From UHGV virus genome UHGV-0060588: 16,053 bases of DNA, one strand, 5' to 3'. The notes under the pieces are model-generated. The model was not told the origin of the DNA. It made no database searches and saw only the letters and a program-made list of their open reading frames with translations. Each line of letters begins with the position of its first letter. The first letter of the stretch is position 1. This document shows positions 385-14,160 of this stretch, one piece after another. The position numbers and the translations under genes were made by a program. Source of the stretch: a virus.

Positions 385-906
385 ATGGTTACTACAGTAA
401 TTACTTTCCCTGCGTATGTAGGGGCGAAAATATGCAGGGCTAAAAATGATGTTCGCTACTATTTGAACGCTTTTTACATAGACCCTGAAGGATTGATAGT
501 GTCTACGGACGGTCATAGATTGTTCTGCGACAATGTGAAGACCAACGTTGAGAAAGGGACTCTCATAGACATCAAAGGGAGAGAGCCTTCTAAATTTAAC
601 TACGCGGAGGTAAACCACGACAACGGCAGTGTATCTTTCTATGACGATAATCGTGCGCTTATATGTACACTTCCGGTAGATGTTGTAGAAGGAAACTTTC
701 CTGACTGGAGACGCGTGGCGCACATCACACCGGGTGTTGTCGATAGTATAGGGTTCACCCTGCGTTATTTGGCAGACGCGTACAAGATTTCTAAGGCATA
801 CAAAAATGAAATTGCTCGTTTTGATTTCCAGGACCAAACCAGAGGATGCAAAATACAATTTTCAAACACGGCCTTTATGGTGTTAATGCCTGCGCGATTT
901 AAATAA
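385..906 (+). CDS. truncated DNA polymerase III beta sliding-clamp (DnaN) homolog, 173 aa
   Basis: AGGAG SD 8 nt before the ATG and a terminator immediately after the stop. The protein carries DVRYYLN and TDGHRL, then VEGNFPDWRRV, then IGFTLRYL...AFMVLMPARFK, which line up with E. coli DnaN segments QDVRYYLNG...ATDGHRLAV, VDGRFPDYRRV and IGFNVSYVL...AAYVVMPMRL (DnaN recalled from memory). The overlapping minus ORF 367..858 has no such support. Confidence 0.7.
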   Translation: MVTTVITFPAYVGAKICRAKNDVRYYLNAFYIDPEGLIVSTDGHRLFCDNVKTNVEKGTLIDIKGREPSKFNYAEVNHDNGSVSFYDDNRALICTLPVDVVEGNFPDWRRVAHITPGVVDSIGFTLRYLADAYKISKAYKNEIARFDFQDQTRGCKIQFSNTAFMVLMPARFK

Positions 907-912
907 AACTAA

Positions 913-933
913 GGCCCCATTATGGGGCCTTTT
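913..933. terminator. rho-independent terminator (GGCCCCA-TTA-TGGGGCC followed by TTTT), probably bidirectional
   Basis: Perfect 7-bp GC stem with 3-nt loop and a T-run on the plus strand directly after the clamp-like gene stop. On the minus strand it follows the stop of the Ig-like ORF (945) with a U-rich tail (TTAGTTTTA). Confidence 0.7.
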
Positions 934-944
934 ATCATTCTGGC

Positions 945-1280
945 TTAGTAACCTTCGCCCGCCGCATTAACAGTCAGAGACAGAGCCTCTTCCGGGGCGT
1001 TCACCACTTCCTTCCCGTCTTTGTACCAGGTCAGTACATACGGCGCTTTACCCGCCTTAACCTCGACAGTGATAGTCGCACTTCCGTCCGCCAGTTCAGC
1101 GCCCTGCGGTTGTACAGAGAAATACACATCTCCAGCGTCAGCCAGATACGGAACCTCGTAAAGCATACCCGCCGCAGGGAGTGCGATACCGGTTTTATCT
1201 GCAAACGGCATATCATCTACCGGTGTACCTAGTACACTTTCGTCTTCAATAAACACCACGTTCTCACCAGAGCCAGACAC
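945..1280 (-). CDS. Ig-like (Big-type) domain protein, 111 aa as drawn; true start uncertain
   Basis: Sequence has an Ig-like beta-sandwich flavour (ATITVEVKAGKAPYVLTWYKDGKEV). The track start is a GTG with no SD, and the frame stays open 28 codons further upstream without any ATG/GTG/TTG. Confidence 0.5.
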   Translation of the reverse strand: MSGSGENVVFIEDESVLGTPVDDMPFADKTGIALPAAGMLYEVPYLADAGDVYFSVQPQGAELADGSATITVEVKAGKAPYVLTWYKDGKEVVNAPEEALSLTVNAAGEGY

Positions 1281-1342
1281 ACGGGCGTACTGGACTACGC
1301 GGCGCGCAGGTACATCAGTTACTTTAAAAAAAAGCCCATAAA

Positions 1343-1963
1343 CTAAACCTCTTTCATTGAGTTAATCTTACGTAAGACGCCTTCGAAAAGGCGTGGGTCT
1401 ATGCTATCGCAAAGACCTTTGTATTCATATGCTAATTCAATTTTTCTATGAAACCATGCTACGTGTGCCTCTTGAGCGGTTTCGTAAGCGCCTATTTGTT
1501 CAGATACGCCATCCACGGATACTTGAGCGATGAATCTTTTCTTTTGTTTATGGAAATGTACGCCGAGTGGGTGTTCGCCTCGAAGAGCGTGGGCTGTTAG
1601 GAAAGTATTGAGGGATTTAGGGATGAAAACACAGTTAGAAGCATCGTAAACCTTATTTCCCGGGTTAAGTAAATCCTTATCTATCTGCCACCCAGGTACA
1701 TAAAAATCATCAAACCAGACCTTGAAATTACTGAACACCAACCAATCGTCCGACACGCGGCAACCTATATAAGTTCTGTTTCTTTGCTGCCATTTCTTGT
1801 CGTAGCACCTCTTTAACATGTTCTTCCATACGGCGTAGGACGCTATATGCACCCCTCCGCAACTTATTGGTGAAACATCGTTAATACCCACACCAAAAAC
1901 AATTCCCATATTAAACCCTATAAGAAAACCCCATGAAGATTGGTCGATGCCAGAGATAGGCAT
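1343..1963 (-). CDS. HNH-like homing endonuclease with C-terminal AP2-type DNA-binding domain, 206 aa
   Basis: N-terminal signature ASYAVWKNMLKRCYD...IDKDLLNPGNKVYDASNCVF typical of phage HNH-family endonucleases, and C-terminal GVHFHKQKKRFIAQVSVDGVSEQIGAYETAQEAHVAW matching the AP2 pattern. It sits between head morphogenesis and Ig-like ORFs as a free-standing insertion. Confidence 0.65.
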   Translation of the reverse strand: MPISGIDQSSWGFLIGFNMGIVFGVGINDVSPISCGGVHIASYAVWKNMLKRCYDKKWQQRNRTYIGCRVSDDWLVFSNFKVWFDDFYVPGWQIDKDLLNPGNKVYDASNCVFIPKSLNTFLTAHALRGEHPLGVHFHKQKKRFIAQVSVDGVSEQIGAYETAQEAHVAWFHRKIELAYEYKGLCDSIDPRLFEGVLRKINSMKEV

Positions 1964-1977
1964 ACCTTCATGGGGTT
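1927..1977 (-). promoter_or_regulatory. 12-bp perfect inverted repeat (AACCCCATGAAG-N27-CTTCATGGGGTT) enclosing the HNH start codon
   Basis: Plus-strand 1927-1938 and 1966-1977 are exact reverse complements. In the minus-strand mRNA the ATG at 1963..1961 lies at the 5' edge of the loop. Confidence 0.4.
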
Positions 1978-2033
1978 ATATTCTTTCTCTATTTTTAGTA
2001 GTTCACCGACCAAAGCTAGCTACTAGATATACT

Positions 2034-3110
2034 TTATACCGACCTAAGATATTCAGCAACCCTGTTATCTAACGCCGCCATCTCCTTCAAGGTTAAAGGT
2101 CTACCAAAAGCGTCGACGGATATTACCCGGAATTCCTCTGGGGATATCCCACTATTCCTGAATATAGCACCGCGGGTAGGTCCGAGTGCTTCATCCACGA
2201 ACCATGCCGGTTGCTGTTTCAGGAACTCGTAATAGGTGGTGTCTGCGCTTACCTGCATACCGCCGTCCGCACCCTTAGCCGCGCGTTTTGCACCTTTATC
2301 TAGGAAGTCGAACTCCGAACTGATTACCGGTGCAGTGGTACTTCGACAATTCGGATGGGCGGGGGGCATCGGCCCCTTACCAATTTCCCACGTCATTCCG
2401 TCTCTGGCTCTGCAAATCGTACTGGTACGGCTGTCCAGTGTTGATACCCACTCGTACTTCTCGATGATGTCGTCGTTCTGGCGGTACGTCTCGTTGCGGG
2501 CTTCGTTGGATACGTGGGAAAGCGCGGTGCGAATTACAGTAGTTGCGTTTCGCTCAGAGATGTCAGCCAGCCCACCCGCGCCTACGACATTCTTAACAAT
2601 CTGCCGTGTGGTCTGGCCTTGTACGAAACCCATCTTAACGCCAGTTACCAGGCGCGCTACTTCTGTTTCGCCCCAACCATTCATCAGCTTAGTGAAGTCG
2701 ACAGGCTTGTCGCTTAATGAGAGCGGCTGAAACTCGGCAGCGGCCCACACCTGTTCAGCGGTAGGCGTAACAAATTCCGCGTCTACGTTGGCGGTCAGTG
2801 TCTTTACGTTCCACTCCGCTTCATATGCTGCCAGTTCCTTAAGGTCTTCTGTCAGCTTCGTCTGCCAGCCGCCTGTAAGTCCTGTTAATGCTTCTTCGAG
2901 GTCGCGTAACAATTTATTCAGCCGCGCGGTGCTCCGCCCGTCGTCGCCGAATAACAGCACCTGCCGTTTGATTTCGTCCCGCATCTCCTGAAGGAACGGT
3001 GCGAGGTCTTTCACTTCACCGGATGCGGTGCGTTGCAGCCATATCTGGTGGCTGATTAGAGATGTAAGTAAGCTCATAGCTAAACCCTGTGGTGCTAAAG
3101 TTAATAGCAT
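2034..3110 (-). CDS. phage head morphogenesis protein (SPP1 gp7 / Mu F-like minor head protein), 358 aa
   Basis: C-terminal signature WVSTLDSRTSTICRARDGMTWEIGKGPMPPAHPNCRST (W-x-TLD-x-RT...H-P-N-C-R) characteristic of this family, and position directly downstream of the portal gene. Confidence 0.8.
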   Translation of the reverse strand: MLLTLAPQGLAMSLLTSLISHQIWLQRTASGEVKDLAPFLQEMRDEIKRQVLLFGDDGRSTARLNKLLRDLEEALTGLTGGWQTKLTEDLKELAAYEAEWNVKTLTANVDAEFVTPTAEQVWAAAEFQPLSLSDKPVDFTKLMNGWGETEVARLVTGVKMGFVQGQTTRQIVKNVVGAGGLADISERNATTVIRTALSHVSNEARNETYRQNDDIIEKYEWVSTLDSRTSTICRARDGMTWEIGKGPMPPAHPNCRSTTAPVISSEFDFLDKGAKRAAKGADGGMQVSADTTYYEFLKQQPAWFVDEALGPTRGAIFRNSGISPEEFRVISVDAFGRPLTLKEMAALDNRVAEYLRSV

Positions 3111-3146
3111 ACTATAAGAAAGCCCCTTTCGGGGCTATATGTGAAC

Positions 3147-4631
3147 TTACTGCTGAGCGGTGTCTTGTTGTTGCTGCGCCGACTGCGGAATCTCTCCTGC
3201 TACCTGAGTAACCGCGCCTAACGGCAGCGGCGCGTCCTCAATAGCGTTCTGGATGTCTTCGTCCGTCCAGTCGGTTACGCCTGCCTTACGCAATGCCGAG
3301 TAATAGGCAGTAGCCGGTAACAGGCCCGCGTTAATGTCCGCCATCCACTGCGCTCGGTCCTGCGCGGTCATCGGTTGCAGGAAGAACTCCATGTTTAGCT
3401 TGAACTCAATTTCTGTGTCATCACGCAACCCAAGCATGGCAGCCGCCCAGCGCAACGCATCGGTATACGCCATGCTTACGTTACACGCGATTGTCGCCAT
3501 AACGGACGTATCGGCGCTGCGTTGTAGACGGGCTGATTCCGCAGTGATTTGCTGCGTCGGGGTGATAAGCTGCGCACCAATCCGGATGGCCTGATTCTCT
3601 TTATCCAGCATGTTCTGCTTGGCCAGGTTATTCTCTCCGGCCTGGACCAGAAACGCATTGCCGCCGTAGCCGATGTTATGACCTGAACGCGACCCCATGC
3701 GCACACCGTGTGGGTTAGCCTCTTTCCACTGTTCCATGCTCATGTTCTCACCCGGGGCGATGAACAGAGTTGGCTGACCTACAACGAAGCTGGATTCCTC
3801 ATTGTCTGCGCTGTTGCGGAAATGCCCGATATTAAGCTCGGCCAACGGCAGCAAAGGCGCATCGTCAATGGTCGCGTCGTTATTGCTTGCGCCAATAAAC
3901 GTGAACGGGATTTTGCCGCGCAACTGTTCGCCAAGTTCCGGGAATATTTCGATTACTTCATCCTGAGCGCCACCTTCGGCATCGAAGCGGTAAATGCGCT
4001 GGCGGTAGCGCCCATCAATCAGGTCAAGGACGCGGTATTGCTCGCCGAACTTTGTTTCGAACTCTGCACCGGGTTCAGAGTATTCCCATACTTCGCGCAA
4101 CACGACCATTGTCACGCGGTTAACTGAACCAACGCGGGTCAGTCTCCAGTTGATGATGTTCTCCGCGGTGTAGAATGCGATGACCGGGTTTAATAATCCT
4201 GCGTTCTGTTCGGCTGCCGTTGCTGCGGCGGTCTCTGGTGCATCAACCAGCAACCCGCCACGACCTACCGAGTCAATTTCCATCAAAGTATCCTGCGCGT
4301 GCTGCCATAGCCCGACACCTGAACCGTCAGCGTTGCGTAACAGGTACTCAAGTTCAGGCGGGATAATCTGCTCAGGGTCTTTACGCATAACACTGCCGAC
4401 CATCCCCGCCAGGGTACGTTTAGTGAAGTTGTAGCAGATAGCGCCGTTCTCGTATTCTTCCTGGCGCTGTGCCGCATAGGTCGGGTCAGGCTCGTTCTTC
4501 CCGACATTGCGCAGGTAACGGATGAGGTCGCCTTCCAGCGCGTGGCGCACCTTCTGCCATTTATTGAAGTGATGCAGCCATTCCCGGTGTTTTGTCTTAA
4601 CACCCTGATTCTGACCGTTCATAGTTAACAT
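3147..4631 (-). CDS. portal protein, 494 aa
   Basis: Size and position between the large terminase and head morphogenesis genes. GAGGA SD before the ATG at 4631, 12 nt after the TerL stop. No specific motif recalled. Confidence 0.7.
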   Translation of the reverse strand: MLTMNGQNQGVKTKHREWLHHFNKWQKVRHALEGDLIRYLRNVGKNEPDPTYAAQRQEEYENGAICYNFTKRTLAGMVGSVMRKDPEQIIPPELEYLLRNADGSGVGLWQHAQDTLMEIDSVGRGGLLVDAPETAAATAAEQNAGLLNPVIAFYTAENIINWRLTRVGSVNRVTMVVLREVWEYSEPGAEFETKFGEQYRVLDLIDGRYRQRIYRFDAEGGAQDEVIEIFPELGEQLRGKIPFTFIGASNNDATIDDAPLLPLAELNIGHFRNSADNEESSFVVGQPTLFIAPGENMSMEQWKEANPHGVRMGSRSGHNIGYGGNAFLVQAGENNLAKQNMLDKENQAIRIGAQLITPTQQITAESARLQRSADTSVMATIACNVSMAYTDALRWAAAMLGLRDDTEIEFKLNMEFFLQPMTAQDRAQWMADINAGLLPATAYYSALRKAGVTDWTDEDIQNAIEDAPLPLGAVTQVAGEIPQSAQQQQDTAQQ

Positions 4632-7530: not shown

Positions 7531-7766
7531 TATTCGGCCCCCTCATAAAAATCTCCATTTCGGTAATCCCCATCGAAATCGTCAGAAATAGCGCACCCCT
7601 TGTTCAGGTTGAAGCGGTTAATCAGTTCACGGCGAGTCTCGTAAAGCGACTCTACCATTTGCTCCGCTACTGCGATTTTAGTATTCAGAACGTGCATCAC
7701 GTGGCTTACGTCTACGCCGCCGTTAACGGCCTCTACCATCATCTTTTCGTATTCACGGTCAGTCAT
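7530..7766 (-). CDS. hypothetical acidic protein, 78 aa
   Basis: ATG 7766 is 3 nt after the upstream stop. Asp/Glu-rich C-terminus (SDDFDGDYRNGDFYEGAE). Confidence 0.5.
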   Translation of the reverse strand: MTDREYEKMMVEAVNGGVDVSHVMHVLNTKIAVAEQMVESLYETRRELINRFNLNKGCAISDDFDGDYRNGDFYEGAE

Positions 7767-7769
7767 TCT

Positions 7770-7907
7770 TTACGCTCTCCCCACATGCGATTGAGATACT
7801 TGTTCTTGTCCGGCCCCGGGAAACTGTTTCTCGCGTGTCGGGAACGGGGTGTGACTGACTTTACGGCCTACCCGTAATGGCTGGCTTACTGGACCTTGTT
7901 CGCTCAT
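7770..7907 (-). CDS. hypothetical protein, 45 aa, Gly/Pro/Gln-rich (below the ORF-track cutoff)
   Basis: ATG 7907 overlaps the upstream stop (ATGA) and is preceded by GGGAGA; the stop lies 3 nt before the next start. Low-complexity sequence, so coding status is uncertain. Confidence 0.35.
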   Translation of the reverse strand: MSEQGPVSQPLRVGRKVSHTPFPTREKQFPGAGQEQVSQSHVGRA

Positions 7908-8517: not shown

Positions 8518-8551
8518 AAAAAAAAAATCCCGGCTGGGTCAGGGCCGGGAT
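8518..8551 (-). terminator. strong rho-independent terminator (8-bp stem ATCCCGGC/GCCGGGAT followed by U10 on the minus strand)
   Basis: Perfect GC-rich hairpin and a run of 10 A on the plus strand (T on minus), about 65 nt downstream of the endolysin stop. Confidence 0.8.
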
Positions 8552-13930: not shown

Positions 13931-14160
13931 CCGAGTTCCAGTCACGCGTATTTACGGCGGTCGTTTCGTTAACCCGCAAAAAAGGGTCGTGCAGCGTTAT
14001 GGACTTGCGCCGTAGTTATTTTAAGTACTATAGTTCCGCCATTATTGAAGGGTCGTTGAAGGTACTGGTTAAATCGGGTGTCGTGAAAAACGTTGGTGGG
14101 AAATATGGTGCTGTTGCTGAAGTTCGCGGAATGGCTGCTACTTTAGAAGACCTGGAATAA
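13927..14160 (+). CDS. hypothetical protein, 77 aa
   Basis: ATG overlaps the upstream stop (ATGA). Possible winged-helix-like segment, not assignable. Confidence 0.5.
   Translation: MTEFQSRVFTAVVSLTRKKGSCSVMDLRRSYFKYYSSAIIEGSLKVLVKSGVVKNVGGKYGAVAEVRGMAATLEDLE

Follow-up and report, generated by a model that had tools for sequence, protein, structure and literature searches.

A Hoc-like decoration gene with two private frame-breaking lesions on a low-coverage Kagunavirus contig

The closest described counterparts of the gene analysed here are the Hoc-like/Ig-like head decoration proteins of the Guernseyvirinae (PHROG 3945; PE1_005 of fPoEco01, gp006 of Schulenburg, gp05 of K1H), which are encoded at the same locus and behind the same Shine-Dalgarno (SD) sequence and ATG; in these phages too the gene lies after the MuF-like head morphogenesis gene and before a bidirectional terminator. 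Our copy is ~95% identical to these proteins at the amino acid level over residues 3-128, but it differs from their genes in that a run of eight T (T8) breaks the frame at codon 5, and in that 56 nt, two strands of the Ig-like domain and the native C-terminus are missing. In a second group of known systems an Ig-like domain also lies out of frame, with a slippery run in between, as in the capsid of phage T3, in Lactobacillus phage A2 and in Listeria phages A118, A500 and PSA (PMC5009743): there the upstream structural ORF is complete, the unshifted and the shifted protein are both produced, and the layout is a conserved one, whereas in the locus studied here the upstream ORF has six codons, the two-frame layout is private, and the relatives encode the protein in a single frame. 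In a third group, represented by the A8 run of apoB, by Citrobacter tssM and by the T9 run of Shigella mxiE, an indel in an A/T run is partly corrected in the mRNA (PMC1088944, PMC4256274). Such a correction is conceivable here as well, but the run measures 8 nt and not the at least 9 of efficient slippage by polymerases of the E. coli type, and a rescue would leave the protein truncated all the same. Finally, our protein resembles Hoc of phage T4, a non-essential outer capsid protein, in being Ig-like, surface-exposed and presumably dispensable, which is consistent with the occurrence of broken alleles in nature. T4 Hoc, however, consists of more than one Ig domain and binds the capsid through a C-terminal domain (PMC10385173), whereas our protein combines a single Ig-like domain with a conserved N-terminal segment.

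The stretch of DNA that we analysed (the window) consists of 16,053 nt of the virus genome UHGV-0060588. Megablast against GenBank phages identifies it as a Kagunavirus (Guernseyvirinae), the best match over positions 700..3200 being Escherichia phage fPoEco01 (94.9% identity). On the minus strand the order of the genes is portal (4631..3147), a MuF/SPP1-gp7-like head morphogenesis gene (3110..2034), an HNH homing-endonuclease-like gene, the Ig-like gene and the bidirectional terminator (Table 1). The HNH gene, whose product is 99.5% identical to the 'putative HNH endonuclease' of fPoEco01, is an optional insert between the MuF-like and decoration genes, and its 3' end holds the SD of the decoration gene; most relatives are without it, and in these the stop codon of the MuF gene overlaps the start of the decoration gene.

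By direct reading of the minus strand, the TAG stop codon of the HNH gene is followed, after 3 bases, by an ATG, and the spacer between the SD and this ATG is 8 nt. The ATG opens a mini-ORF (ATG GGC TTT TTT TTA AAG TAA), in whose zero frame, inside the T8 region (A8 on the plus strand), the heptamer U_UUU_UUA is found at 1331..1325. The Ig-like domain is encoded in the -1 frame relative to the ATG, where an ORF of 111 aa (945..1280) is listed as starting from a GTG. A preliminary description of this DNA had maintained that the T-run parts the two frames and that a -1 shift or an extra T would fuse them, and our reading bears this out: with either event (the latter producing T9) the ATG would be joined to the Ig frame. 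The same description had the Ig frame open upstream of the GTG over 28 codons with neither a start codon nor an SD. There is indeed no ATG, GTG or TTG in this frame between 1361 and the GTG, and no SD before the latter, but the open stretch, bounded on its upstream side by a TAA at 1364..1362, amounts to 27 codons. In the entire window there are 5 homopolymers of at least 6 bases, two of which reach at least 8 bases.

Table 1. Position of the decoration gene, its lesions and the neighbouring features in the window.
Feature	Coordinates	Strand	Remarks
HNH homing-endonuclease-like gene	1343..1963	-	206 aa from ATG 1963; stop TAG 1345..1343; ORF list
Shine-Dalgarno AAGAGG	1348..1353	-	Same in HNH-carrying relatives (alignment A1); annotated ribosome-binding site in phage Schulenburg
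Start of the decoration gene and mini-ORF	1319..1339	-	Conserved ATG 1339..1337; the +2 insertion leaves MGFFLK*
T8 homopolymer	1326..1333	-	Frame-breaking lesion, +2 nt with respect to the T6 (or T5C) of relatives
Body of the decoration gene, -1 frame (KVTDVPARRVV ... AAGEGY)	948..1325	-	PHROG 3945 positions 3-128 of 152; comprises some three-quarters of the Ig-like domain and, ahead of GTG 1280, the conserved N-terminal part
GTG chosen by ORF logic	1278..1280	-	Internal codon Val-20 (RVSGSG) in relatives; no SD
Junction of the 56-nt deletion, lone GGCGAA copy left	954..959	-	Alignment A1; overlap of BLAST HSPs
Bidirectional intrinsic terminator hairpin	911..931	both	Shared with the convergent gene; annotated terminator in Schulenburg
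Beta-clamp-like gene, convergent	385..906	+	Shares the terminator 911..931

In the annotated relatives the CDS that comes after the HNH gene (or after the MuF gene, if HNH is absent) is 459-462 nt long, begins exactly at the ATG that matches position 1339, and goes by the names of 'capsid decoration', 'Hoc-like head decoration' or 'putative tail protein'. The fPoEco01 orthologue aligns with the PHROG 3945 profile (Hoc-like head decoration) over positions 1-151 of 152 (E = 1e-85), and the window translation 948..1334 only over positions 3-128 of 152 (E = 9e-71); weak Pfam matches to Ig_3, Big_2 and I-set cover residues ~72-146 of the fPoEco01 protein, while those of the window product end at 114. 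For a full-length homologue (P0001) the AlphaFold2 model reaches a mean pLDDT of 61 overall, with values of ~67-86 in the Ig part, and its top structural matches are classical Ig domains and the capsid decoration proteins of Moo19 and N4, two phages. The homologues are also very uniform in length and at their N-terminus: among the 120 best protein clusters (of 388 homologues) 117 are 149-155 aa long, M(M)GFF opens every full-length homologue among the cluster sequences that we read, and the 20 N-terminal residues upstream of the codon equivalent to GTG 1280 are nearly invariant. The ATG of the relatives, the cluster sizes and the invariant N-terminus together show that ATG 1339 is the authentic, conserved start of a ~152-aa Ig-like, Hoc-like decoration gene, and that GTG 1280 is its internal Val-20. 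The preliminary description had already identified the ATG behind AAGAGG as the natural start, and this view agrees with the fact that the relatives open an intact gene at the same ATG. The location of the protein on the capsid of Kagunavirus is a matter of annotation and not of experiment, and a search of the literature for virion proteomics of this decoration protein in Kagunavirus found none.

The T-run was compared first in a DNA alignment of the window with six GenBank relatives (alignment A1), and then in 40 IMG/VR loci encoding the protein. In the 42 related loci with a parsable start the run is either T5C (37 loci) or T6 (5 loci), and never longer; the complete loci among them all encode an intact 152-aa ORF (ATG GGC TTT TTC/T AAA GTA ...). 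A blastn search with a 67-nt query across the run returned 111 GenBank records, and since the full-span matches listed occupy 64-65 nt, there is no T8 among them. Exact-pattern scans also came back empty, both for the T8 allele in IMG/VR and for T7-T10 alleles in metagenome and genome contig collections (0 matches). A 41-nt T8 probe found no match by megablast in GenBank phages, an outcome that is uninformative, since the low-complexity filter may mask the run. With respect to fPoEco01 the 2-nt gap in the T-run is the sole frame-breaking indel in the 4.9-kb structural block. As the relatives have only T5C or T6, the window carries a +2 insertion that is private to this contig. A trait of the PHROG 3945 family, a single uninterrupted ORF from M(M)GFFKV, is thus absent from the window, where the frame of the ATG stops after MGFFLK. 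A comparison with homologous loci had been recommended in the preliminary description; its outcome is that all 42 are in frame and that the two-frame layout recurs in none.

A second lesion, which had gone unnoticed in the preliminary description, affects the other end of the gene. In alignment A1 the window is without 56 nt near the 3' end, between two 6-bp direct repeats GGCGAA, of which a single copy remains; the BLAST HSPs with fPoEco01 overlap exactly at this copy. Where the relatives read GG(C/T)GAA TAC TTC GTT AAA GTT ACT GAT GCC GAT GGT ... AAA GCG GCG AAG GTT ACT AAG CCA GAA TGA, the window reads GGC GAA GGT TAC TAA. The residues lost are the equivalents of EYFVKVTDADGVEAVSKAAKV, that is, Ig strands F and G, the last two strands (128-135 and 141-150) of the AlphaFold2 model of P0001. 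The deletion also shifts the frame, with a new stop codon (TAA 947..945) ahead of the ancestral one (TGA 937..935 on the minus strand), and the coverage of PHROG 3945 accordingly ends at profile position 128. The pattern of the deletion junction is absent from IMG/VR: the 56-nt deletion is private to the window contig and removes strands F and G. The window product therefore does not possess the complete Ig-like beta-sandwich (residues ~72-148) that is typical of the family, and because of the deletion even a product with a restored 5' frame (131 aa with T9) would still have an incomplete sandwich.

These results are best interpreted, with a probability of about 0.5, as an ordinary decoration gene caught broken, a real and very recent null or near-null allele (a pseudogene) in the sampled phage. 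In the intact state translation would start at the SD-ATG directly 3' of the upstream gene and proceed straight through the short T-run. At some point the run would have gained 2 nt by slippage (T6 to T8), so that translation from the true ATG would end after six codons, and a second event of slippage type would have deleted 56 nt between the GGCGAA repeats near the 3' end, at the cost of Ig strands F and G; such an allele of an accessory, dispensable gene would have little or no function left. If T8 is real, slippage of the RNA polymerase from U8 to U9, or -1 slippage on U_UUU_UUA, might still give rise to traces of a 131-aa, C-terminally truncated protein: any such rescue would be an adventitious leak and not a designed one, and is likely to be small. 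Two of the alternatives listed in the preliminary description, a decaying gene and a homopolymer-length sequencing error, are the ones favoured by the evidence, and we infer that the lesions were present in the phage, rather than made in library preparation or assembly.

The age of the lesions can be appreciated from the frame-corrected coding sequence, in which 24 synonymous and 6 non-synonymous codon differences separate the window from its nearest relatives, all six changed residue states occurring in other homologues. From these counts it follows that the gene evolved under purifying selection until very recently, and the breaks are very young or not real. Other alleles are damaged or rearranged independently, and they suggest that loss of the gene is tolerated, although some may be assembly noise: one locus (L049) has an additional A at codon 16, on three contigs; another (L050) has TGG changed to TAG at W104; one protein (P0122) has a frameshifted tail after residue ~70, and another (P0123) a 15-aa tandem duplication. 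The sequence of P0121, a cluster-mate, is not that of a close relative. T4 Hoc likewise tolerates loss, and the gene studied here is probably dispensable as well. If the lesions are real, they represent one more case of a dispensable Ig-like decoration protein that is repeatedly lost in wild Kagunavirus populations. The gene itself is ordinary and well known, and the locus would open neither a new mechanism nor a long-standing question.

An alternative that must be taken seriously, although we consider it somewhat less than an even chance, is that the gene was intact in the phage of the sample and that the indels are errors, introduced by faulty reads or, while the DNA was amplified or the library prepared, by a polymerase that slipped or switched templates; with so few reads at each position, such false indels would have survived. 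The window corresponds to ENA metagenome contig ERZ1690229:NODE_513 (cov_2.365046), whose decoration locus (L048) is found letter for letter in the reverse complement of the window, and at a k-mer coverage of just 2.37x single molecules or even single reads can set the consensus. Within 16 kb this contig carries four private indels, all of slippage or microhomology type: besides the +2 in the T-run and the 56-nt deletion, there are a 14-nt deletion at 7829/7830, which frameshifts a conserved 52-aa gene intact in ~30 relatives, and an in-frame contraction of 3 nt in the HNH gene (ACGACG to ACG), which is not found in five relatives. The stretch around the 14-nt deletion is otherwise identical at 1272 of 1273 positions (1 substitution) to IMG/VR contig 3300045988_028451. 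Such a ratio of indels to substitutions is unusual for natural divergence and compatible with artefacts of amplification or assembly. The spectrum of the four indels is what one would expect either of replication slippage in vivo or of a polymerase that slips and switches templates in vitro, and is unlike simple base-calling error. The codon differences described above, which show no relaxation of selection, also favour an artefactual origin, and the private HNH allele is carried by no other assembly, so that the window has no independent confirmation.

Other observations speak against an artefact, and for lesions that were present in the phage. The genes for TerS, TerL, portal, MuF, HNH, clamp, endolysin, holins and helicase-primase are all intact in the window (TerL, portal, MuF, helicase-primase and the lysis genes at 87-100% amino acid identity), and three homopolymers have the same length as in the relatives (G6 at 2361, A10 at 8518, A6 at 13978); the matching homopolymers and intact genes make a general base-calling problem unlikely, and the former argue against a platform with difficulties in homopolymer calling. 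Furthermore, essential genes, which make up ~45% of the contig, have been spared by the three frame-breaking lesions, all of which hit accessory genes, although the weight of this distribution is small (p ~0.17). A +2 in a 6-mer and clean deletions of 14 and 56 nt are atypical base-calling errors, and De Bruijn assembly is not known to collapse 6-bp repeats.

In the preliminary description programmed -1 frameshifting or transcriptional slippage had been listed first among the possible explanations. According to this hypothesis a -1 shift on U_UUU_UUA, or slippage from U8 to U9, would fix a low level of decoration protein, an arrangement that we consider very improbable. The local sequence does have the form of a shift site, since a canonical X_XXY_YYZ heptamer is in phase with the ATG and the Ig-like domain is read at -1. 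Runs of 8 A/T can slip measurably, as about a tenth of the apoB product is rescued at A8 and some IS elements use 8A (PMC1088944), and phage Ig-like domains are sometimes joined by frameshifting (PMC5009743). Given the rescue of ~10% at an A8 run in one eukaryotic case, a small leak is plausible if T8 is real. However, a programmed event would be expected to leave other signs. The two-frame layout is private, being found in 0 of 42 loci, in none of the 111 GenBank matches as listed, and not once in the scans of metagenome and genome contigs; read without a shift, the ATG yields just six residues, for which no function is plausible. The RNA 3' of the run is no more stably folded than shuffled controls (z +0.22, -0.71) and behaves like that of the relatives, so there is no stimulatory structure, and the gene is disabled by the second lesion at its 3' end. 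The sole SD is the initiation SD, at 16 nt from the heptamer, and the optimal spacing for stimulation of -1 frameshifting by an SD is 10-14 nt. In E. coli U_UUU_UUA is much less shift-prone than A_AAA_AAG (PMC5009743). As for transcriptional slippage, a programmed site would be expected to be conserved and long enough to slip efficiently (at least 9 nt in many bacteria), and the run in the window is 8 nt long and private; selection against A/T runs is evident from 9 nt in a large share of bacterial genomes (PMC1088944). More generally, a slippery-looking heptamer that lies within a private homopolymer indel is no evidence of recoding.

A related idea, which we regard as no more credible than programmed recoding, is that the T-run is a hypermutable switch that toggles the display of the decoration protein by replication slippage, and that the contig happens to be an OFF variant. 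The homopolymer is in fact located at codons 3-5 of a protein that is surface-exposed and can probably be dispensed with, a T8 tract mutates more readily than T6, and other independently broken alleles exist. Those alleles, however, are hit at different sites, and the relatives have only T5C (37) and T6 (5), both in frame, and no tract length that breaks the frame occurs among them; the C of T5C splits up the run, contrary to what one would expect if mutability had been selected for, and the 56-nt deletion is irreversible. For a genuine T8 one could also imagine a combination of these proposals, with transcriptional, ribosomal and replication slippage at codons 3-5 acting together as a throttle or switch that sets or toggles the number of decoration proteins displayed, and with the contig as an OFF or weakly expressing variant of a phage contingency locus; the chances of this being the case appear to us just as slim.

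Least probable of all is that the annotated ORF is right and that a 111-aa protein starts at GTG 1280, or is reinitiated there after the mini-ORF, because this codon, although no other canonical start precedes it in the Ig frame and it lies 39 nt past the mini-ORF stop, has no upstream SD and is an internal Val-20 in all relatives, as the preliminary description had anticipated in doubting it as a start, and the resulting product would be devoid both of strands F and G and of the 19 near-invariant residues at the N-terminus. The gene caller used for the ENA record picked a different start (103 aa), so the choice of start is arbitrary. Reinitiation at ATG 1315 was also considered and discarded, as this codon is in the wrong frame (MYLRAA*). 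The locus therefore calls for some caution with automatic annotation, since the ORF call at GTG 1280 conceals that the copy of this well-conserved decoration gene on the 2.4x contig is frameshifted and truncated at its 3' end.

Two other sites of the window were evaluated as possible errors and rejected. The change of G3 to G2 at ~194, in a 36-aa ORF, is common to two related loci (L007 and L010) and is a natural polymorphism. The C5 run at 7538..7542 might have been a further broken homopolymer, but G5 is normal in the IMG/VR relatives, where the region consists of two overlapping genes (TAATG); the outlier at this site is GenBank PQ429079, which has C9 and is annotated with a 159-aa fusion.

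The conserved 52-aa gene of family phrog_4684, which is unbroken in about 30 relatives, is frameshifted in the window by a private 14-nt deletion (GGAACTGATGAAAC) that is flanked by the imperfect repeats GGAAC and GAAAC. Over the 1273 nt surrounding the deletion there is one substitution with respect to the IMG/VR contig 3300045988_028451.

Differences in run length are found elsewhere (the locations of these and other features are listed in the table). In the 36-38-aa ORF a G2/G3 polymorphism is present at about position 194, and in the window it cuts off the conserved ATG from the remainder of the frame. The G2 state is natural, because it is shared by two IMG/VR loci (L007 and L010); the polymorphism puts in question either the status of this ORF as a genuine gene or the choice of its start. 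A run that is G5 in the window and in its IMG/VR relatives is instead G9 in PQ429079, where it joins two overlapping genes (78 and about 81 aa, with a TAATG overlap) into a single annotated protein of 159 aa; the deviation probably lies in that record, through either a homopolymer error or a private mutation, and not in the window. The A10 run, the longest homopolymer in the window, also varies in length among relatives, being A10 in fPoEco01 and A8 in PQ429079.

Features compared between the window and its relatives
Feature	Location	Strand	Remarks
36-38-aa ORF	105-221	minus	annotated in relatives as Schulenberg_008, Bas72_0007
HNH homing-endonuclease-like gene	1343-1963	minus	
G9 run region	1338-1817 of L051, GenBank PQ429079 (vB_VIPECOTPH05A); corresponds to window 7538-7542		
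52-aa gene, phrog_4684	about 7907..7766	minus	deletion at 7829-7830
A10 run	8518-8527	plus	non-coding, upstream of lysis genes

The HNH gene is optional and sits as an insert precisely between the stop of the MuF-like head morphogenesis gene and the ATG of the decoration gene. Among kagunaviruses a minority carry it (fPoEco01, fFiEco02, Schulenburg, K1ind3, 536P11 and five IMG/VR loci); most lack it, and in these the MuF stop overlaps the start of the decoration gene (TAATGATGGGC). A Pfam search with the HNH gene returned no match at E ≤ 0.1. Near position 1591 the window copy carries a private in-frame contraction of ACGACG to ACG. The MuF-like capsid morphogenesis gene of the related phage Snoke (GenBank MK931441) is annotated as carrying an intein, an insert that is absent from the window copy (3110..2034).

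The decoration gene is independently damaged or rearranged in further metagenome assemblies. An allele with an additional A at codon 16 occurs in three contigs (L049, 1501-1878), and at another locus (L050, 1501-1815) W104 is changed from TGG to TAG. Among the homologous proteins, the tail of P0122 is frameshifted beyond residue about 70, and P0123 contains a 15-aa tandem duplication (two copies of AGKAPYVLTWYKDGK).
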